Counted from the stretch's first letter, positions 5,390-25,534 are shown. The stretch is DNA of 33,032 nt from a virus (IMGVR_UViG_3300032018_000003); one strand, 5' to 3'. Program-made: numbers and translations. Notes: generated by a model from the letters alone, not told the origin.

Positions 5390-5760
5390 AAAAACTTGAT
5401 AAACTAGGAAGAACATACAAAGGACATTCAAGAGCAATGTTTGAACGATATTGTGTTGTATGTAATACTTTTTTTAGAACAAGAGTGCAACGAAAACTAA
5501 CTTGTACAGTCCCGTGTTCAAATAAAAGAAAAGTAAATTCTATAAAAAGAAAACGTACAGAATATTATAAAACGTTTGTTGAACTTCGCAATAGAGGAAG
5601 ACTTTTATTAGACACTATGTTAAAACAAAAATATAAACATTTATACGAGGTAGTAAAAGAACGTCCTTCAGGAAGAATGTATATTAATAATAAAACATTA
5701 ACTGAATGGAAAGAACATTTAGATATGTTTGAAAAGGAGTTGCAAAATGAAAATTCCTGA
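5386..5760 (+). CDS. Basic zinc-finger protein
   Basis: CVVC...CTVPC motif; ATGA overlap with gtrA. Confidence 0.55.
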   Translation: MKKLDKLGRTYKGHSRAMFERYCVVCNTFFRTRVQRKLTCTVPCSNKRKVNSIKRKRTEYYKTFVELRNRGRLLLDTMLKQKYKHLYEVVKERPSGRMYINNKTLTEWKEHLDMFEKELQNENS

Positions 5761-6460
5761 ACTATCTATAGTGATCCCGTGTTATAATGAAGAAAAGAGA
5801 TTGGATAAAAACTTTTATGTTATTTATAATTACTGTCTAAAAAATATTAAAAAGTTTGAAATAATTCTTGTAGATGATGGTTCTACGGACAGCACACCAT
5901 TTATGATGATGAAACATCATGATAAAAATATAAAATTTATTACATATACAAAAAATATGGGTAAAGGATATGCCGTTAAACAAGGTATAATGAGAGCACA
6001 ATATAAACACGTTTTGTTTATGGATATAGATAGTGCAACACCAATAAATGAAATAGAAAAACTATATCCATATGTAAATAAATATAATGTTGTTATTGGT
6101 AGTAGAGAAATTGAAGATAGTAATATTATTGTACAACAACCTATCAGTAGAAAAGTTATGGGTTGGGTATTTAGAAAAATGTATTATATTATATTAGGAT
6201 TAAAAATTAGAGATACTCAAAATGGATTTAAGTTGTTTGAAACATCGACTGCGCAATTCTTATTTAGCCAATTAACTACTAACAGATGGGCATTTGATAT
6301 AGAGATATTATACTTATATATACATAGAGTTTTTCCTAGTTGTAAAATAAAAGAAGTTGGTATTACATGGATTAATGATAAAGACTCACGTGTCAATCCA
6401 ATAAAAGACGGAATACAAATGTTTATTGCATTATTACAGATAAGGTTTAGACATGGATAA
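5747..6460 (+). CDS. GT2 dolichyl/polyprenyl-phosphate glucosyltransferase (ALG5/AglJ-like)
   Basis: SIVIPCYNEEKRL, VDDGSTD, NMGKGYAV, DxD (DID), DTQNGFKLF, WAFDIEIL motifs. ATG at 5747 follows AAGGAG. Confidence 0.85.
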   Translation: MKIPELSIVIPCYNEEKRLDKNFYVIYNYCLKNIKKFEIILVDDGSTDSTPFMMMKHHDKNIKFITYTKNMGKGYAVKQGIMRAQYKHVLFMDIDSATPINEIEKLYPYVNKYNVVIGSREIEDSNIIVQQPISRKVMGWVFRKMYYIILGLKIRDTQNGFKLFETSTAQFLFSQLTTNRWAFDIEILYLYIHRVFPSCKIKEVGITWINDKDSRVNPIKDGIQMFIALLQIRFRHG

Positions 6461-7631
6461 TAAATTTATTATTACTTGTGTTATTATATTTATAGTTAGT
6501 ATAGTAGGATTCTTATGTATAAAAAATCAAGATCTTTATAGTGATGAATTACCGCATAGTACACAAATAAAATGGTTTGACGAAGAAAATTATTCGATAG
6601 TACCATATTTAACTGTTATTCCCGGGTATCATTTTGTAATTTCTGCATTCACTATACATTTTAAACAAGATACCATACAATTAATACGGTTTACATCGTT
6701 AATTTTATTAATTGGATTGTTGATACCATTATTTTTTAGGTTATCGTTAGACAATAGTATTAAAACATTACAATTATATTTTTTTCCTACATTATTTATA
6801 TTCTTTTTTCTTATTTATACAGACATTTTTAGTGCAATATTAGTTTTATTATCGTATTATTATTTTAAACAGAACAAATATTACATAAGTGGGTTGTTTG
6901 TTTTATTATCGGTATTAGTAAGACAAAACAATGTCGTGTGGTGTGGTTTTTATATATTACTTTTAATTTTAGATTTCAAATTAAAAAATAATTTTGAAAA
7001 TAATTTAAAAATATTTAAAAAAACAATAGTTTATATTATAGGAATTTTGTTTACTGGAGTGTTTATGTTACTAAACCACGGTGGTGTAATAGGAGATAAA
7101 GGAAGTCACCCATTAGCAATACATACAGCAAACATATGGTTTTTATTATTTATGATACCAATATTATTCTTACCGATTTTTTTAGCACGTTTACCAAAAA
7201 TTATAGAATTATTAAAGAACTGGAAGATATGGTTTTTATGTATAGGAATTATGATTTTAGGACTTGGAACTTTTATTAACGATCATATATATAATCAAAA
7301 CACGGTGTTCCTAAAAAATAAATTCTTGGTTTGGGGTACTAGTAATGCTATGAATGAGATAGCTTTTTTTATTATTGTTATTGGTGGATTATTGTTCTTA
7401 ATGACATATAAATGGAATAAAGAACAGATTGTGTTTGGAATATGTACGATACCATATTTGTTAATGAGTTGGATGGTGGATGTAAGATATTATACAATAT
7501 TTTTTATATTTTTTATACTATGGCGACAACAAGAAGATAAACCTATTTTTGAATGGTATCAGTTAATATATTGTATTTTGTTTGCGTTAATAATGTTTTG
7601 GGGAGTATTACAATGGAAGATATTTTGGTAA
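6453..7631 (+). CDS. ALG10/DIE2-like GT-C alpha-glucosyltransferase
   Basis: Multi-TM protein with YSDELPH, TVIPG, FPTLFIFFFLIYTD, RQNNVVW, GGVIGDKGSH, VRYY and terminal FW, colinear with remembered ALG10 motifs (YMDEIFH, TTLPG, FPTLYFFNFLYYTE, RQTNIIW, GGIVIGDRSSH, FRYF, FMW). Confidence 0.8.
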   Translation: MDNKFIITCVIIFIVSIVGFLCIKNQDLYSDELPHSTQIKWFDEENYSIVPYLTVIPGYHFVISAFTIHFKQDTIQLIRFTSLILLIGLLIPLFFRLSLDNSIKTLQLYFFPTLFIFFFLIYTDIFSAILVLLSYYYFKQNKYYISGLFVLLSVLVRQNNVVWCGFYILLLILDFKLKNNFENNLKIFKKTIVYIIGILFTGVFMLLNHGGVIGDKGSHPLAIHTANIWFLLFMIPILFLPIFLARLPKIIELLKNWKIWFLCIGIMILGLGTFINDHIYNQNTVFLKNKFLVWGTSNAMNEIAFFIIVIGGLLFLMTYKWNKEQIVFGICTIPYLLMSWMVDVRYYTIFFIFFILWRQQEDKPIFEWYQLIYCILFALIMFWGVLQWKIFW

Positions 7632-10912: not shown

Positions 10913-11826
10913 TGAAATCACACATTACAGACCCAGCTATGTTTGGGTTGTGGTTAGATAGTCATAAACAATTATCAGAAAGTACTAGAACCATGTATAT
11001 TAGTTCTCTTATATCTTTTCTTAAAAAAAATCCAGAAATAGATAAACTTGATACATATAACGAGTTTATTATAAAAACATGTATAAAGAAACGTAGTACA
11101 CATTTTTATACAGTTCTACACGATTATATAACTTTTAAGATAGAAGACGCTTCGTTAAGAAGAGTATTATTAGATGGGTTAATACGACCAGACATAAAAA
11201 TGGATATTTTTAGAGAACGAAAATATATATCAGAAGAGAAAATAATAGACGTTATAAATAATCTAGCCGATATTAAACATCGAACTATTGCACTTATTCA
11301 ATCAATGACCGGTGTTCGAGCTGGAGATATAATGAGACTTAAAAAAGGTCTTATTATGCCAGAAGAGTATGAAGGTAAACCTGTATTAAAACTCAGTTTA
11401 ACTGGGAAAAGAAAGAAACGTAATGTTGTTTTTATACACGACGAAGTCGCACAATCTCTTATTATGTATTATATTACTGAAGTTCTGCCTAGCCGAAGTA
11501 CGTTTGACGAATACTATTTTATAGATTTCGGTAGTAGAAATAAACGTCGTGGGGATATAACAAACCATTTTAAGATGTATAAAATGAATTATAATTGGTA
11601 TTGGGGCGATCTTAAACAAGCGCTTGAAAATAGTGGTGTAGACAAAGATATGTTTGCGACACACGATTTCCGTAGATGTTTTGCGCGTAGGGCATGGGAA
11701 CGATATAAAGACATACACGTATTACAAAGTTTACTTAGTCACCAGGATCCTAAAACTACACTTAGATATTTAACCCAAAGTGGGTTAAGAAATATTGATT
11801 ATCATAAGGATATGCAAACGCAATAA
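10912..11826 (+). CDS. Tyrosine recombinase / integrase
   Basis: Catalytic set GVRAGD (R), GKRKK (K), HDFRR (HxxR), LLSH, TLRY (Y). Confidence 0.9.
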   Translation: MKSHITDPAMFGLWLDSHKQLSESTRTMYISSLISFLKKNPEIDKLDTYNEFIIKTCIKKRSTHFYTVLHDYITFKIEDASLRRVLLDGLIRPDIKMDIFRERKYISEEKIIDVINNLADIKHRTIALIQSMTGVRAGDIMRLKKGLIMPEEYEGKPVLKLSLTGKRKKRNVVFIHDEVAQSLIMYYITEVLPSRSTFDEYYFIDFGSRNKRRGDITNHFKMYKMNYNWYWGDLKQALENSGVDKDMFATHDFRRCFARRAWERYKDIHVLQSLLSHQDPKTTLRYLTQSGLRNIDYHKDMQTQ

Positions 11827-20978: not shown

Positions 20979-21159
20979 AGACAATTATTTAAATACTGTG
21001 TATGATAAAGAATTCGGTACTATGTATTTCTGTACTGCTAAAATACCGTGTACACATCAAGCACATCTTGGTTTATCAATAAGTGTTTGTGATATAAAAC
21101 AAATGTCAGATTCATTAATAAAATATTTTCATTATGAGAGGTCTAAAAAAAATGGTTGA
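20959..21159 (+). CDS. Small Cys/His-containing hypothetical protein
   Basis: 66 aa, overlaps both neighbours. Confidence 0.5.
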   Translation: MLETICKDNYLNTVYDKEFGTMYFCTAKIPCTHQAHLGLSISVCDIKQMSDSLIKYFHYERSKKNG

Positions 21160-21733
21160 TATTAAACAAGCCGCGGAATGGATGTTGGAAGGACATCTTA
21201 TTAAACGAAAAAGTAAAGAGTTTCTTATTGTATACGATTATAATAAACCTGAAGAAGAGTTTGGACTTAACATTGATGATTTACGTGCTAATGATTGGGA
21301 AATTAATAAACGTAAATTCGCGCCGGTTAAGGCGGACTATATTATGTACATCTTTGCTAATAAAAAACATAAAATGTCTCCTGGTAAATTAAGTAAAATG
21401 GTTGCTGATGGCGCCTGTTTCGGCGCACTTAATACAGATAAAGAAACAGTTAGACAATGGATCCAACAAGGTTTTAATAAAACTATATTTGAAATCATGG
21501 ATGAATATCAATTAAAAGAAATTCAGCATAACCTTATCAAATTAGGTGTTGAGAGTTATATTATTCTTGATAAAGATGCTGATGTTAATACTGCGCTCGG
21601 TGTACAAATTGTTGATAAAAATAAATATAAAGAATTTTTTGATAAATATAAATTATATAAAAAAGTATCTTTATTTGATAAAATTAAAGAATTTTTTAGT
21701 AAATTTAAAAAGAAAAAGGACGAATACAAATGA
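21152..21733 (+). CDS. Fusion of a DUF2829(Tad2)-like N-terminal domain and a peptidyl-tRNA hydrolase 2 (PTH2)-like domain
   Basis: N-terminus IKQAAEWMLEGHLIKRK...IDDLRANDWEI; C-terminus KMSPGK...W...GFNKTIF...ILD...TALGV...YKLY. ATG at 21152 after GAGGT. Confidence 0.6.
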   Translation: MVDIKQAAEWMLEGHLIKRKSKEFLIVYDYNKPEEEFGLNIDDLRANDWEINKRKFAPVKADYIMYIFANKKHKMSPGKLSKMVADGACFGALNTDKETVRQWIQQGFNKTIFEIMDEYQLKEIQHNLIKLGVESYIILDKDADVNTALGVQIVDKNKYKEFFDKYKLYKKVSLFDKIKEFFSKFKKKKDEYK

Positions 21734-22649: not shown

Positions 22650-22714
22650 AAAATTTCTACAATTTTTATATAACCCTTATTAAAATTTTCTAACAATAAC
22701 GGTTATAACCATAT

Positions 22715-22788
22715 ACAGCGATACAAAATTGGATTTTTGGAGTGGCTCATAACCATTATAAGAGAAGGTTCGATTCCTTCTCGCTGTA
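22715..22788 (+). tRNA. tRNA-Met(CAT)
   Basis: ACAGCGA/TCGCTGT acceptor; AGTGG-CTCATAA-CCATT; TTCGATT T-loop. Confidence 0.85.
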
Positions 22789-22802
22789 TTTTTTATTATT
22801 AT

Positions 22803-22873
22803 GGCTATGTAATATAAAGGTATTATATCTGACTGTTAATCAGAAAATATGGGTTCGATTCCTATCGTAGCCG
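22803..22873 (+). tRNA. tRNA-Asn(GTT)
   Basis: GGCTATG/CGTAGCC; TCTGA-CTGTTAA-TCAGA; G73. Confidence 0.85.
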
Positions 22874-22876
22874 TAT

Positions 22877-22963
22877 GACAGTATGCCCCGAATCTGGTAA
22901 GGGAATCGTTTGCTAAACGATGTCAGACCTGACAATTGGGTTCAAATCCCAATACTGTCGCCA
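22877..22963 (+). tRNA. tRNA-Ser(GCT)
   Basis: GACAGTA/TACTGTC; long variable arm; G73; encoded CCA. Confidence 0.9.
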
Positions 22964-22964
22964 T

Positions 22965-23048
22965 GCGCGGGTACTAAATTGGAAAATAGAATGGGTTTAG
23001 ACCCCATGTGATAAGTTCACTGTAAGAGTTCGAATCTCTTTCCGTGCA
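22965..23048 (+). tRNA. tRNA-Leu(TAG)
   Basis: GCGCGGG/TCCGTGC; ATGGG-TTTAGAC-CCCAT; long variable arm; A73. Confidence 0.9.
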
Positions 23049-23056
23049 TTAGTTAT

Positions 23057-23183
23057 ACCGGATTGGCAGAGTAGTCAAATGCGGCAGACTTAAGATACGA
23101 TATATCAAACTGCAATCAAGTTTGACTATATGAGTAATCTGTTACCCGTAGGGGTTGCGAGGGTGCAAATCCCTTATCCGGTA
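23057..23183 (+). tRNA. tRNA-Leu(TAA) with 42-nt intron at 37/38 (23095..23136)
   Basis: ACCGGAT/ATCCGGT; GCAGA-CTTAAG|intron|A-TCTGT; canonical BHB motif; long variable arm. Confidence 0.85.
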
Positions 23184-23192
23184 TTTTTATTT

Positions 23193-23277
23193 GGTAAGGT
23201 ACGGAAATGGTAAACCGCTTCCGCTTGAGACGGAATGTTGTGAATAACATACGCAGGTTCGAGCCCTGCCCTTATCG
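23193..23277 (+). tRNA. tRNA-Ser(TGA)
   Basis: GGTAAGG/CCTTATC; TTCCG-CTTGAGA-CGGAA; long variable arm; G73. Confidence 0.9.
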
Positions 23278-23286
23278 TTTAGAAAT

Positions 23287-23362
23287 GTGTCTATAAGCCA
23301 ATTGGTAGACTACCTCGTTTGCACCGAGGACGCTTCGGGTTCGAATCCCGATAGATACACCA
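23287..23362 (+). tRNA. tRNA-Ala(TGC)
   Basis: GTGTCTA/TAGATAC with the G3:U70 identity pair; encoded CCA. Confidence 0.9.
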
Positions 23363-23364
23363 TT

Positions 23365-23437
23365 GTCATCGTAGCTCCAAAGGTAGAGCGGTCGGCCTGT
23401 ACCCGACAGGATAGGGGTTCAAACCCCCTCGATGGCT
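23365..23437 (+). tRNA. tRNA-Thr(TGT)
   Basis: GTCATCG/CGATGGC; GTCGG-CCTGTAC-CCGAC; U73. Confidence 0.9.
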
Positions 23438-23441
23438 TTTC

Positions 23442-23513
23442 GGCTCGTTGGACAAATAGTAAGTCGTTTGGTTGCAACCCAAAAGAATATGCGTGCGAAT
23501 CGCATACGAGTCT
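23442..23513 (+). tRNA. tRNA-Cys(GCA)
   Basis: GGCTCGT/ACGAGTC; TTTGG-TTGCAAC-CCAAA; U73; D-loop AG, T-loop TGCGAAT. Confidence 0.85.
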
Positions 23514-23522
23514 TAATAGAAT

Positions 23523-23537
23523 GACAATATATATAAA
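23523..23537 (+). promoter_or_regulatory. Promoter of tRNA operon 2
   Basis: GACAATATATATAAA, a variant of the recurring motif. Confidence 0.55.
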
Positions 23538-23573
23538 TAAGTTGTTTCATATAGGTATATTATGTTAAACTTA

Positions 23574-23673
23574 AATCATAAACAACAATATTGGAAGGAA
23601 CGAGGCAACTCACAGATAATTAGAGTGATTCCCGGGTTCTTTATAGATAACCAATAGTTACGTTGTTATGATT
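23574..23673 (+). ncRNA. Putative structured RNA, long irregular stem with GNRA hairpin
   Basis: AATCAT.AACAAC/GTTGTTATGATT closing stem, TTGG/CCAA, AAGGAAC/GTTCTTT and GAG-GCAA-CTC. Confidence 0.4.
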
Positions 23674-23772
23674 CAAATTCTATAAAAAAATATTAAATAA
23701 ACAATACCCCACAACATTTGGGTCATAATATATGTAATAATTGGAATTCTATATTGTTTATGTTTAAAAGAT

Positions 23773-23844
23773 GTACTGTTCGTTCAACAGTTAGGATTAT
23801 GGGTTTACACCTCATAGATACCCGTGCAATTCGGGTACAGTATA
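23773..23844 (+). tRNA. tRNA-Val(TAC)
   Basis: GTACTGT/ACAGTAT; ATGGG-TTTACAC-CTCAT; D-loop AG, T-loop TGCAATT. Confidence 0.85.
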
Positions 23845-23853
23845 TTAGAATAT

Positions 23854-23928
23854 GCGGTTGTAGTGTAGTCGAGCCAATCACGTCGTGCCTTCGCCACGAA
23901 GACTTGGGTGCGAATCCCAACTACCGTA
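23854..23928 (+). tRNA. tRNA-Glu(TTC)
   Basis: GCGGTTG/CTACCGT; TCGTG-CCTTCGC-CACGA; D-loop AG, T-loop TGCGAAT. Confidence 0.85.
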
Positions 23929-23933
23929 TTTAT

Positions 23934-24006
23934 GTGGTATTAGTGTAATCTGGTATCACCAGGCGTTTGGAACGCTTTAATGCCGGTTCGAATCCGGTGT
24001 ACCACA
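23934..24006 (+). tRNA. tRNA-Pro(TGG)
   Basis: GTGGTAT/GTACCAC; AGGCG-TTTGGAA-CGCTT. Confidence 0.9.
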
Positions 24007-24008
24007 TT

Positions 24009-24081
24009 GGCTGAGTAGTATAATTAGATAGTACACAAGATTGTCGATCTTGAGAAACGGGAGCATAACCCGTCTCAGTCG
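24009..24081 (+). tRNA. tRNA-Asp(GTC)
   Basis: GGCTGAG/CTCAGTC; CAAGA-TTGTCGA-TCTTG; G73; atypical T-loop AGCATAA. Confidence 0.85.
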
Positions 24082-24086
24082 TATAT

Positions 24087-24158
24087 ACAGGGTTAGCTTA
24101 ACGGTAAAGCAAAGGTCTTATATACCTTCGAGTACGCGTTCAAATCGCGTATCCTGTA
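24087..24158 (+). tRNA. tRNA-Ile(TAT)
   Basis: ACAGGGT/ATCCTGT; AAGGT-CTTATAT-ACCTT; anticodon at 24119..24121. Confidence 0.85.
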
Positions 24159-24163
24159 TTCGT

Positions 24164-24235
24164 ATCGCTGTAGCTTAATGGTAAAGCATTTGCCTGATAT
24201 GTAAACGAGTGTGCGTTCGAATCGCACCGGCGATA
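24164..24235 (+). tRNA. tRNA-Ile(GAT)
   Basis: ATCGCTG/CGGCGAT; TTTGC-CTGATAT-GTAAA. Confidence 0.9.
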
Positions 24236-24239
24236 TCAT

Positions 24240-24314
24240 AGGCGTGTAGTATAACTTGGATTAGTACACGAGTTTTCTAAACTCGTTATATGGGTTCAAA
24301 TCCCGTCACGCTTG
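24240..24314 (+). tRNA. tRNA-Arg(TCT)
   Basis: AGGCGTG/CACGCTT; CGAGT-TTTCTAA-ACTCG. Confidence 0.9.
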
Positions 24315-24315
24315 C

Positions 24316-24390
24316 GGACGTGTAGTGTAACTTGGATAACATATTCGGTTTCGACCCGAAAGAATTTGCGTTCAAATCGCAACACGTTCA
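24316..24390 (+). tRNA. tRNA-Arg(TCG)
   Basis: GGACGTG/CACGTTC; TTCGG-TTTCGAC-CCGAA. Confidence 0.9.
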
Positions 24391-24393
24391 TAC

Positions 24394-24468
24394 GGATCGG
24401 TAGCTCCAATAAGTTAGAGCAAGGGACTTTTAATCCCGAGGTTGTGGATGCAAATTCCACCCGGTTCA
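24394..24468 (+). tRNA. tRNA-Lys(TTT)
   Basis: GGATCGG/CCGGTTC; GGGA-CTTTTAA-TCCC; D-loop AG, T-loop TGCAAAT. Confidence 0.85.
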
Positions 24469-24478
24469 TTTAGTAAAT

Positions 24479-24550
24479 AGGGTATGAGACTGACGGAATG
24501 GTCGCGAGTCTTTGGAACTCGAGGAACCGGTTCAATTCCGGTATACCCCA
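24479..24550 (+). tRNA. tRNA-Gln(TTG)
   Basis: AGGGTAT/ATACCCC (1:72 mismatch); CGAGT-CTTTGGA-ACTCG. Confidence 0.85.
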
Positions 24551-24553
24551 TAT

Positions 24554-24628
24554 GGTAGAGGTCGTTCAACGATAGGATAAGGGTTTGTGACACCTTTGAA
24601 GCGGGTTTAACTCCCGTCCTTTACCCCA
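24554..24628 (+). tRNA. tRNA-His(GTG)
   Basis: Encoded G-1:C73; GTAGAGG/CCTTTAC; encoded CCA; D-loop GA, T-loop TTTAACT. Confidence 0.85.
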
Positions 24629-24633
24629 TATAT

Positions 24634-24706
24634 GTCAATGTAGCTTAACCTGGGAGAGCAACTGACTGAAGCTCAGAAGACGAGGATTCAAATTCCTCCT
24701 TTGACA
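24634..24706 (+). tRNA. tRNA-Phe(GAA)
   Basis: GTCAATG/CTTTGAC; CTGA-CTGAAGC-TCAG. Confidence 0.85.
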
Positions 24707-24729
24707 TTTTTATATTTAGAGGATAACCA

Positions 24730-25275
24730 ATGGAAAAAGAAAAAAATAATTACGAAACATATCGTAACCAATTAAGTAAAGAAGAATATTTTAAACGATT
24801 TAAAACTGAAGACGCAGAAAAAATCGGTGACGAATTAAAAGAAGACTTGTATCAGAAATACATTGTGAAATGTATTGTCTTCAATAGAGATAATTTCAAA
24901 TGTCAAAACATTAATTGTAAAGCTCCCGATAGTCCATTAACAATGCATCATGTTAAATGGCAAAAGAACGGTGGTAAAGATAGTCAACGAAATTGTGTTA
25001 TATTATGTATGAGTTGTCATAAAAATTATCACCGAGGAAAATTTATAATAACTTTTAACAATAATGAAAAATTACCACAACATATCAAAGGACATACTTT
25101 CAGATTAGAAAAAGCAGATGAAGTTGACTGGAAACAAATTAAAAACGATATGAAAAAAATTAGAAAACAATTGAAATATTCAACAAATGTTTCAAAAGGA
25201 ATCTGGTATAAAATTGAATGGAGTAAAGTAGAACATTTAATGAAAATATTAGAAGAATGGTTAAAAGAATATTAA
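24730..25275 (+). CDS. HNH endonuclease inside the tRNA cluster
   Basis: FNRDNFKCQNINC...LTMHHVK...NCVILCMSCHKNYH. Confidence 0.85.
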   Translation: MEKEKNNYETYRNQLSKEEYFKRFKTEDAEKIGDELKEDLYQKYIVKCIVFNRDNFKCQNINCKAPDSPLTMHHVKWQKNGGKDSQRNCVILCMSCHKNYHRGKFIITFNNNEKLPQHIKGHTFRLEKADEVDWKQIKNDMKKIRKQLKYSTNVSKGIWYKIEWSKVEHLMKILEEWLKEY

Positions 25276-25287
25276 TTTTTTATTTTT

Positions 25288-25359
25288 GCACTGTTGGTGA
25301 TAACGGTATCATGCGGGACTTCCACTCCTGATTTGCGGGTTCAAATCCCGTGCGGTGCA
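25288..25359 (+). tRNA. tRNA-Gly(TCC)
   Basis: GCACTGT/GCGGTGC; CGGGA-CTTCCAC-TCCTG; A73 (archaeal/eukaryal type). Confidence 0.9.
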
Positions 25360-25366
25360 TTTTTAT

Positions 25367-25442
25367 CTATTGGTAGAACAACAGCTTAGTTCAGTGGGTT
25401 GTAACCCCATTAATCCGTGTGCAACTCACGGCCAATAGACCA
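25367..25442 (+). tRNA. tRNA-Tyr(GTA), archaeal type
   Basis: C1:G72 (CTATTGG/CCAATAG), short variable loop, encoded CCA; D-loop AG, T-loop TGCAACT. Confidence 0.9.
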
Positions 25443-25445
25443 TTT

Positions 25446-25517
25446 GGAGTAGTAGTGTAACGGGAACATGTCAGATTCCAGACCTGAAGACTGAGAGTTC
25501 GATTCTCTCCTATTCCA
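25446..25517 (+). tRNA. tRNA-Trp(CCA)
   Basis: GGAGTAG/CTATTCC; TCAG(A)-TTCCAGA-(C)CTGA. Confidence 0.85.
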
Positions 25518-25534
25518 TTTTTTTAATTTTCTTT
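25518..25534 (+). terminator. Oligo-T terminator at the strand-convergence point
   Basis: TTTTTTTAATTTTCTTT immediately after tRNA-Trp. Confidence 0.5.

Follow-up and report, generated by a model that had tools for sequence, protein, structure and literature searches.

The contacts that join D-loop and T-loop at the elbow of tRNA are textbook "universal" landmarks for tRNA finders, modification enzymes, RNase P, T-boxes and the ribosome. They are considered here for a cluster of 24 tRNA genes on a 33,032-nucleotide stretch of viral DNA (IMGVR_UViG_3300032018_000003), the whole of which was analysed and is called the window below. Reviews treat the contacts G18-psi55 (psi, pseudouridine), G19-C56 and T54-A58 as near-invariant (PMC7912444), and yeast SUP4oc tolerates no single mutation at G18, U55, G19, C56, U54 or A58 (PMC4117946). 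Departures from the canonical G18, G19, U55 and C56 have been described for the staphylococcal non-proteinogenic tRNA-Gly (PMC4574755) and for tRNA-Pyl and the type II mitochondrial tRNAs (PMC7609411).

T-loops are also found outside tRNA, where the great majority read UGNRA (88.7%) or CGNRA, the tRNA-type UUCRA being the exception (bioRxiv 10.1101/2022.12.26.521914). The T-loops of riboswitches read UGNRA/YGNRA; the adenine that intercalates there is inserted between positions 4 and 5 and held by two hydrogen bonds to the sugar edge of the position-2 G, with UGNAA as the favored form (bioRxiv 10.1101/2022.12.26.521914). We conclude, with a probability of about 0.8, that the tRNA genes of the window, which belong to a tailed archaeal virus, are working genes whose corner contacts between D-loop and T-loop have been rebuilt by matched double substitutions. 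This amounts to a second, naturally occurring design for the elbow of tRNA; a literature search on the A18/G55 swap, on G18A/U55G and on the phage tRNA elbow found no description of it.

Elbow States in the Viral tRNA Cluster

The tRNA genes were called with ARAGORN and with Rfam RF00005 (gathering threshold, 29 bits), and all 24 are located on the + strand at 22714-25518. ARAGORN found 23 of them, whilst Rfam contributes the intron-bearing tRNA-Leu(UAA) and supports 21 others. These 22 genes, which include all eight variants discussed below, score 40.6-68.1 bits and are all above the threshold. The D- and T-loops were taken from the ARAGORN structure strings, except those of tRNA-Leu(UAA), which were read by hand. 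The range given for the cluster by the first-pass annotation, 23057-25442, covers part of it but omits the upstream Met, Asn, Ser-GCU and Leu-UAG genes and the downstream Trp gene.

The D-loop dinucleotide GG is combined with the T-loop sequence TTC in 16 of the 24 tRNAs. Seven others have AG in the D-loop and G55 in the T-loop, so that G18 with U55 is replaced by A18 with G55. These are tRNA-Leu(UAA) (23057..23183; D-loop AGTAGTCAA, T-loop TGCAAAT; 40.6 bits in Rfam), tRNA-Cys(GCA) (23442..23513; AATAGTA / TGCGAAT; Rfam alignment and ARAGORN readout) and, all from the ARAGORN readout, tRNA-Val(UAC) (23773..23844; AACAGTTA / TGCAATT), tRNA-Glu(UUC) (23854..23928; AGTCGAGCCAA / TGCGAAT), tRNA-Asp(GUC) (24009..24081; AATTAGATA / AGCATAA), tRNA-Lys(UUU) (24394..24468; CAATAAGTTA / TGCAAAT) and tRNA-Tyr(GUA) (25367..25442; AACAGCTTA / TGCAACT). 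The first three bases of the T-loop are TGC in all of these except tRNA-Asp, where A54 and U58 additionally replace U54 and A58, which are kept in the 23 other tRNAs. The eighth variant is tRNA-His(GUG) (24554..24628), with AACGATA as D-loop and TTTAACT as T-loop (G18 A19 and U55 U56; ARAGORN readout); it has A19-U56 instead of the G19-C56 that is retained in all others. The D-loop thus matches the T-loop in 24 of 24 tRNAs (2x2 table for A18/G55, 7/0/0/17; Fisher p = 2.9e-6), and the loop readout and the perfect covariation reported by the first-pass annotation were reproduced exactly. In an unedited MAFFT alignment, the D-loop dinucleotide falls in a single column pair, and the Cys loop AATAGTA aligns base for base with AATGGTA of Ile-GAU.

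Each codon box or half-box is served by one gene of the set; U34 is used in all four-codon boxes, and AUA is read by Ile-UAU. Every variant tRNA is the sole gene in the set for its codons.

Coordinated Switches in Related Viruses

Relatives were located via two genes, the neighboring one for PTH2 and the HNH gene that interrupts the cluster. Four related metagenomic contigs carry syntenic clusters, i.e., L135, L144, L145 (= L146) and L147 (which overlaps L148), and the HNH gene is found at the identical place in relatives, between Phe and Gly. In IMG/VR, no relatives were found with the neighboring phosphatase or with 19-21-mers of the Val and Arg D-arms as queries, and a search of metagenomes with a PTH2 alignment yielded one 3.7-kb contig that carries no tRNAs.

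Orthologous tRNAs are 70-80% identical between these viruses, yet in the compared cases they differ only by a coordinated elbow switch. Of the 24 tRNA identities shared by two or more of the five viruses, 15 are polymorphic in their elbow state (Ala, both Arg, Asp, Gln, Glu, His, Ile-UAU, Leu-UAG, Lys, Met, Ser-GCU, Thr, Trp and Val). Both tRNA-Glu and tRNA-Lys, for example, are found as AG/TGC, as GG/TTC and as GT/TTA, the latter corresponding to U19-A56, and tRNA-His is found as GA/TTT, GG/TTC and AG/TGC. At least 18 coordinated double changes were counted among the five viruses, together with zero cases of uncompensated G18/G55 or A18/U55. The tRNAs for Cys and Tyr have A18/G55 in every relative that possesses them (Cys in four related viruses).

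When 74 class I tRNAs of the virus family were aligned with MAFFT and the alignment was left unedited, the same picture emerged. At 18/55, 69 cells are G-U or A-G, a number reached in none of 100000 shuffles, and in the other five the dinucleotide is shifted by one column (TG-G, GA-G, AG-GG and similar). This pair was scored by a dedicated shuffle test, standard pair-counting not accepting A-G as a pair. Positions 19 and 56 are paired in 98.6% of the cells (70 G-C, two U-A and one A-U) and positions 54 and 58 in 100% (73 U-A and one A-U), and in both pairs both sides change. The four cloverleaf stems are paired in 95.8% of the cells, 689 of which are doubly changed (0 of 500 shuffles); slid controls gave 34-50%.

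Since the stems co-vary and the elbow switches are matched, the tRNAs are constrained and functional-looking, and the elbow changes are true tertiary covariation. The proposal of the first-pass annotation that the changes are compensatory and not a sign of decay is borne out by the matched double changes in four relatives, by the co-varying stems and by the absence of any uncompensated state among the 365 viral tRNAs described below. All three tertiary pairs, 18-55, 19-56 and 54-58, co-vary across the related viral clusters.

A Proposed Generic T-Loop Design in tRNA

The changes at 19-56 are ordinary Watson-Crick covariation. For 18-55, the T-loops outside tRNA offer a model. The UGNRA pattern at loop positions 1-5 is present as TGCRA in six of the seven A18/G55 genes, the AGCAT of tRNA-Asp falling outside it, and the pooled tRNAs contain 39 TGC-R-A loops. 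A57 is enriched in the variant loops (44/62 vs. 118/264; p = 2e-4), which accords with the generic preference for UGNAA. Furthermore, every G55 tRNA has an A at position 18, which at the level of sequence is consistent with the intercalation of an adenine. By analogy, U54-G55-C56-R57-A58 together with A18 would represent the generic UGNRA T-loop design placed in a tRNA.

The swap would turn a UUCRA loop with an intercalating G into a UGNRA loop with an intercalating adenine. The L-shape and the flat outer face of G19-C56 would be kept, whilst U55, the site of pseudouridine, would be lost. Selection on the fold keeps each gene in whichever of the two stable states it occupies, and flips between these states recur often in viral tRNA sets. 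The A18/G55 state could also be advantageous in itself, by conferring resistance to enzymes that require U54-U55 or freedom from T-loop modification.

Variant Elbows in Other Viruses

Scans of IMG/VR seeded on the T-arm only retrieved tRNAs of other identities on unrelated contigs, and every one of them has an AG D-loop. Some of the A18/G55 matches are bacteriophages, such as L100 with a class II tRNA-Tyr, L056 with a suppressor tRNA(CUA), and L069, which is located on a 481-kb contig. When 365 unique viral tRNAs were pooled, 61 combined A18 with G55 (Fisher p = 2e-64). One apparent combination of G18 with G55 among them is a classification artefact, and one real oddity is an unclassifiable tRNA-like gene. 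A scan of IMG/VR that admitted either TTC or TGC in one T-arm yielded 19 TTC and five TGC tRNAs, and its 38 loci also contain A-U, U-A and C-G at 19-56, A54-U58 in otherwise canonical loops, and C55 with G18. The variant classes seen in viral tRNAs are G55, C55, A54 and U, A or G at 56. The tRNAs of the cultured phages T5 and Cronobacter phage CR3 lack A18/G55. The tRNA-Ile(GAU) of phage T5 (L149, 8211-8287) has AGCGATCTA as D-loop and TTTAAAT as T-loop, which gives A19-U56.

In the viral sets of L157, L163, L165, L168, L172, L175 and L179, positions 19-56 are found as C-G (GC + TTG), U-A (GT + TTA) and A-U (GA + TTT). The same sets have A-U at 54-58 in U55 loops (ATCGTAA and similar), of which L172 has approximately nine. 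Dense clusters of 9-13 tRNAs were also seen on three contigs filed as bacterial or archaeal metagenome-assembled genomes (MAGs), i.e., L262, L227 and L261, which are probably phage contigs binned into MAGs. One such cluster contains a suppressor tRNA(CUA) and two A18/G55 tRNAs, and L227, labeled Nitrososphaerota, carries a bacterial-type class II tRNA-Tyr.

Variant Elbows in Archaeal Cells

All 77 tRNAs read from two Asgard genomes and one Poseidoniaceae genome have G18/U55 and G19/C56. The sole T-loop departure among them is the A54 of an Asgard tRNA-Met (L370, 13176-13301; genome G009), whose T-loop ATCGAAA resembles that of the eukaryotic initiator. In two Woesearchaeota MAGs, the tRNA-Thr genes are AG/TGC. 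In this phylum, two more complete genomes, with 42 and 39 tRNAs, have variants among the Thr isoacceptors (UGU, CGU and GGU) only, so that every tRNA-Thr gene recovered from the four genomes bears the swap. The D-loop of these tRNA-Thr is AGTAGCTA (AGGAGCTA in one G034 gene) and their T-loop TGCAAYT or TGCAAGT. A 14-mer of this T-arm was found in 20 of 301 genomes of the phylum, with 23 matches vs. one for the reversed control, and essentially all matches are tRNA-Thr. The A18/G55 loci for tRNA-Thr are L333, L338, L342, L344, L393-L414, L434 and L451 (genomes G006, G007, G034, G036 and 16 others). The swap in tRNA-Thr looks like a lineage-wide, identity-specific trait of Woesearchaeota-type (DPANN) archaea. 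In 201 Asgard genomes, the same 14-mer gave 14 matches, and the ten that were inspected are three tRNA-Cys with an AG D-loop and seven chance matches. The Asgard tRNA-Cys(GCA) with AG / TGCAAYT are located at L492, L500 and L501, in three genomes.

The first-pass annotation had considered that A18-G55 might be common in the tRNAs of the host lineage itself. The pair does occur in archaeal cells, but in one amino-acid identity per lineage and in about 5-7% of the tRNA genes (2-3 of ~40), vs. 29-59% in the virus family. The possibility raised by the first-pass annotation is partly borne out, which refines the finding and does not remove it. With A18/G55 native to the cells of some archaea, processing and translation in archaea are evidently able to use the swap. 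A scan of cellular genome contigs for TTC or TGC returned mostly random non-tRNA sequences and gave no reliable virus-vs.-cell frequency ratio; at least nine TTC and at least one TGC tRNA were among the matches listed, and the TGC tRNA belongs to a cluster of 13 tRNAs that is phage-like but was binned in a "genome."

Possible Functions and Alternative Explanations

Several points weigh against the reading of working tRNAs with a rebuilt elbow. The Met-CAU and Ser-GCU genes, both with canonical elbows, are called by ARAGORN only. Orthology was defined by anticodon and synteny, which could hide gene replacement, and the viral contig sample was seeded on variant T-arms, which inflates the frequency of the variants and leaves the association unaffected. 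The proposed geometry of A18-G55 is modeled on solved non-tRNA T-loops. Lastly, naming AG as positions 18-19 hinges on the register in D-loops of variable length. This register is upheld by G19, which faces C56: where position 56 is altered to U, A or G, G18 is followed by A, U or C, respectively.

Given a rebuilt elbow, drift, escape from host defenses and independence from modification are possible, non-exclusive readings of why the states change. The first, neutral drift between two states, has a real, if minority, chance of being correct. G18/U55 and A18/G55, as well as the alternatives at 19-56 and 54-58, would then be about equal in fitness, and occasional double changes would arise in huge viral populations, where, over a short infection, many cellular users of the elbow, such as modification enzymes and long-term stability, count for less. 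Consistently, the variants are patchy over the identities, gains and losses occur both ways among the five viruses, and the elbow state is unlinked to codon usage, whilst the fixation of these states in single cellular tRNA families indicates that the archaeal machinery accepts them. However, drift leaves the apparent excess in viral and mobile sets over the cellular sets examined unexplained. Moreover, the lack of even a single uncompensated G18/G55 or A18/U55 among 365 tRNAs implies a deep valley between the states, and the uniform A18/G55 of tRNA-Cys and tRNA-Tyr in the relatives is not what drift would predict.

It is also possible, though slightly less likely, that the swap serves counter-defense. 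It would remove the U54-U55-C56 that is read by T-loop nucleases (Schlafen/Cash) or other elbow-reading host factors; the changes at 18, 19 and 58 would only mend the fold, and the flip-flop among relatives would record an arms race. CbCash, a Schlafen nuclease associated with CRISPR, cleaves tRNAs within the UUC motif, 5' of U55, and a single substitution of U54 or U55 abolishes cleavage; the authors state that phage tRNAs were untested (PMC13462974). Its determinants U54 and U55 are altered in seven genes of the window, and all viral variant classes hit exactly U54, U55 and C56. Variants are, furthermore, frequent in viral sets, not only in the virus family (26-59% of the tRNAs) but also in the one-T-arm scan of IMG/VR (5 of 24), and in the archaeal genomes examined they stay within one identity. 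Yet, UUC is missing from only eight of the 24 tRNAs, and a broad T-loop nuclease would still stop translation. Close relatives differ in the changed subset, for which no link to codon demand was seen (p = 0.21), returns to GG/TTC are as common as gains, and the cellular tRNA-Thr and tRNA-Cys bear the swap without an obvious defense context. In its widest scope, i.e., that tRNAs of archaeal and bacterial viruses fold and decode normally but escape cutting at a site thought invariant in all life, the idea is doubtful.

Independence from T-loop modification is an unlikely driver. Pus10/TruB and TrmA-type enzymes act at U54 and U55 (PMC7912444). Pseudouridine cannot be formed from G55, nor 5-methyluridine (m5U) or 1-methylpseudouridine (m1-psi) from A54, and the bare transcript would fold correctly, which may suit tRNAs made in bulk late in infection or hosts with a reduced modification machinery. 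The set indeed uses Ile-UAU rather than a modified CAU and reads all four-codon boxes with U34; Ile-UAU is likewise used in the Woesearchaeota-type genomes whose tRNA-Thr is variant. However, two thirds of the set retain U54-U55, and only tRNA-Thr is altered in the Woesearchaeota-type genomes. The varying subset, the common reversals and the lack of a link to codon demand (p = 0.21) count against this explanation as they do against counter-defense.

Inheritance or mimicry, in which the virus would have copied host tRNAs that were already A18/G55, is quite improbable. It would fit the native A18/G55 of Woesearchaeota-type tRNA-Thr and some Asgard tRNA-Cys, and the viral tRNA-Cys is in this state in all four relatives having it. 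But the tRNA-Thr of the window is canonical, seven other identities are variant, with different sets in the relatives, orthologues of 70-80% identity differ only by the coordinated switch, and with any of the archaeal tRNAs tested the viral ones share no more than 50-75% identity. A reading as decaying pseudogenes, or as an artefact of annotation or alignment, for which the Rfam scores of the variants (40-56 bits, somewhat below the best canonical ones) might be cited, can hardly be entertained, since these scores exceed 29 bits, the stems are intact and co-vary, the variants are sole decoders with coherent states in the relatives, and the association with the AG D-loop emerged from searches with the T-arm only.

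Cluster Organization, Gene Neighborhood and Host

The remaining genes of the cluster, all on the + strand, have canonical elbows according to the ARAGORN readout. Upstream of tRNA-Leu(UAA) are Met-CAU, Asn-GUU, Ser-GCU and Leu-UAG (22715..23048). They are followed further downstream by Ser-UGA, Ala-UGC and Thr-UGU (23193..23437), tRNA-Pro(UGG) (23934..24006), Ile-UAU, Ile-GAU, Arg-UCU and Arg-UCG (24087..24390), tRNA-Gln(UUG) (24479..24550), tRNA-Phe(GAA) (24634..24706), tRNA-Gly(UCC) (25288..25359) and tRNA-Trp(CCA) (25446..25517). The cluster is interrupted by one gene for an HNH endonuclease (24730..25275, + strand; Pfam PF01844) and one structured element that is not a tRNA. The latter, of ~100 nucleotides (23574..23673, + strand), lies between tRNA-Cys and tRNA-Val, stands outside the elbow finding and is kept in L135 (~11083-11183). 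It has a long closing stem, and three of its 24 predicted pairs are kept through changes on both sides between the window and L135. No Rfam match was found for this element. A role as a Y-RNA-like partner is a possibility, given the Ro60/TROVE genes nearby in relatives.

Just upstream of the cluster is the gene for a PTH2-type (archaeal/eukaryotic) peptidyl-tRNA hydrolase (21134..21733, + strand; Pfam PF01981). The window, which is AT-rich (29.6% G+C), also encodes a tail-fiber-like protein with collagen repeats, a tyrosine recombinase, a glucosylation cassette and a DNA methylase. No tRNA fragment was found beside the recombinase gene. At 5729-7631, a GT2 glycosyltransferase is followed by a GT-C enzyme of the DIE2/ALG10 family; the closest homologues lie on uncultivated contigs, with one in a Candidatus Moranbacteria MAG. 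The contigs of the GT-C homologues (L139-L141) yielded nothing on tRNAs. The proteins of the window are found on a contig of 97,032 bp. The relatives flank their tRNA cluster with genes for Ro60/TROVE+vWA, eRF1-like (eRF1_1/2, acVLRF1) and radical SAM proteins (L135, 15020-17580; L145, 12481-14079 and 4183-4837; L147, 9410-10990 and 5797-6168; L144, 205-1120), which appear to form a viral translation and RNA quality-control module.

The window very probably derives from an archaeal virus. A class I tRNA-Tyr with C1-G72 is of the archaeal/eukaryotic type, and that of the window, with its encoded CCA, is such a tRNA. Together with the bulge-helix-bulge intron of tRNA-Leu(UAA) and the PTH2 gene, it supports the archaeal host assumed by the first-pass annotation; the G-1 of tRNA-His, which is encoded, as is its CCA, and the eRF1-like and Ro60 genes of the relatives point in the same direction. 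The intron, recognized by eye, has 42 nucleotides (23095-23136, + strand) and is inserted between positions 37 and 38. It fits the bulge-helix-bulge motif, with two 3-nucleotide bulges (A36-G37-A and U-A-A38), a 4-bp helix in which C32-A35 pair with UGAG at 23131-23134 (one G-U), and predicted cuts after the second base of each bulge. Introns of 16-25 nucleotides with the same layout are present in Arg, Gln, Gly, Pro, Phe, Tyr, Met and Ile genes of the relatives. A comparison of the viral tRNAs with five archaeal genomes, at 50-75% identity, did not discriminate the host lineage. A search of 401 genomes of the Woesearchaeota-type phylum did not recover the clade of the viral PTH2; the one match was a cellular PTH2 with 33% identity. 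The one sequencing run in which the window was found is a sediment metagenome, which is probably its source, and no RNA dataset was among those listed.

Comparison With Known Systems

The virus family constitutes a natural experiment, in which all three elbow contacts prove re-codable by matched pairs, and A18-G55 matches the solution of T-loops outside tRNA. It offers clean evolutionary covariation for tertiary, partly non-Watson-Crick contacts of tRNA, and predicts tRNAs that lack psi55 by design, both in viruses and in whole archaeal lineages (Woesearchaeota-type tRNA-Thr). It also offers a direct test of escape from immune nucleases that cut the T-loop, and carries the warning that such tRNAs are scored too low by gene finders and covariance models.

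With the canonical elbow (G18-psi55, G19-C56 and T54-A58), the tRNAs of the window share the cloverleaf, the T-loop of seven nucleotides, R57, the G53-C61 pair and the docking of a dinucleotide on positions 55 and 56. They differ in that seven have A18/G55, one has A19/U56 and one has A54/U58 in addition, with U55 missing from seven genes. With the T-loops of FMN and cobalamin riboswitches, introns and rRNA, the variants share U-G-C-R-A at positions 1-5, the partner adenine and the preference for A at position 4. Here, however, the module is located in a tRNA and, in its putative geometry, retains the Watson-Crick pair G19-C56. Moreover, the riboswitch-type consensus does not cover the A-G-C-A-U of the Asp loop, in which the 1-5 pair is reversed.

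The cellular tRNA-Thr of the Woesearchaeota type and the tRNA-Cys of Asgard archaea share with the viral tRNAs the AG + TGCAAYT combination and the archaeal context, several with introns. In cells, A18/G55 is fixed in one identity per lineage, whereas in the virus family it is found in many identities, which differ between relatives. The tRNA-Ile(GAU) of phage T5 has the GA D-loop and the A19-U56 pair in common with the tRNA-His of the window, but T5 is without A18/G55. Azam et al. 2024 (PMC11555353, as cited in PMC13462974) reportedly described phage tRNAs that escape tRNA-cutting defenses, the published cases concerning the anticodon loop. Such tRNAs are likewise virus-borne sets that differ from host tRNAs at positions read by nucleases, but there the anticodon loop is altered, whereas the changes in the window affect the elbow.

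The mention of "A18/G55" in a preprint on ornate RNA proved to be unrelated to the swap. The staphylococcal tRNA-Gly was considered as a precedent and rejected, its contacts being missing and not re-coded. In this tRNA, in tRNA-Pyl and in the type II mitochondrial tRNAs, the interaction between D-loop and T-loop is lost or replaced, in special roles or systems. In the tRNAs of the window, by contrast, it is rebuilt by matched pairs in ordinary elongators for many amino acids.

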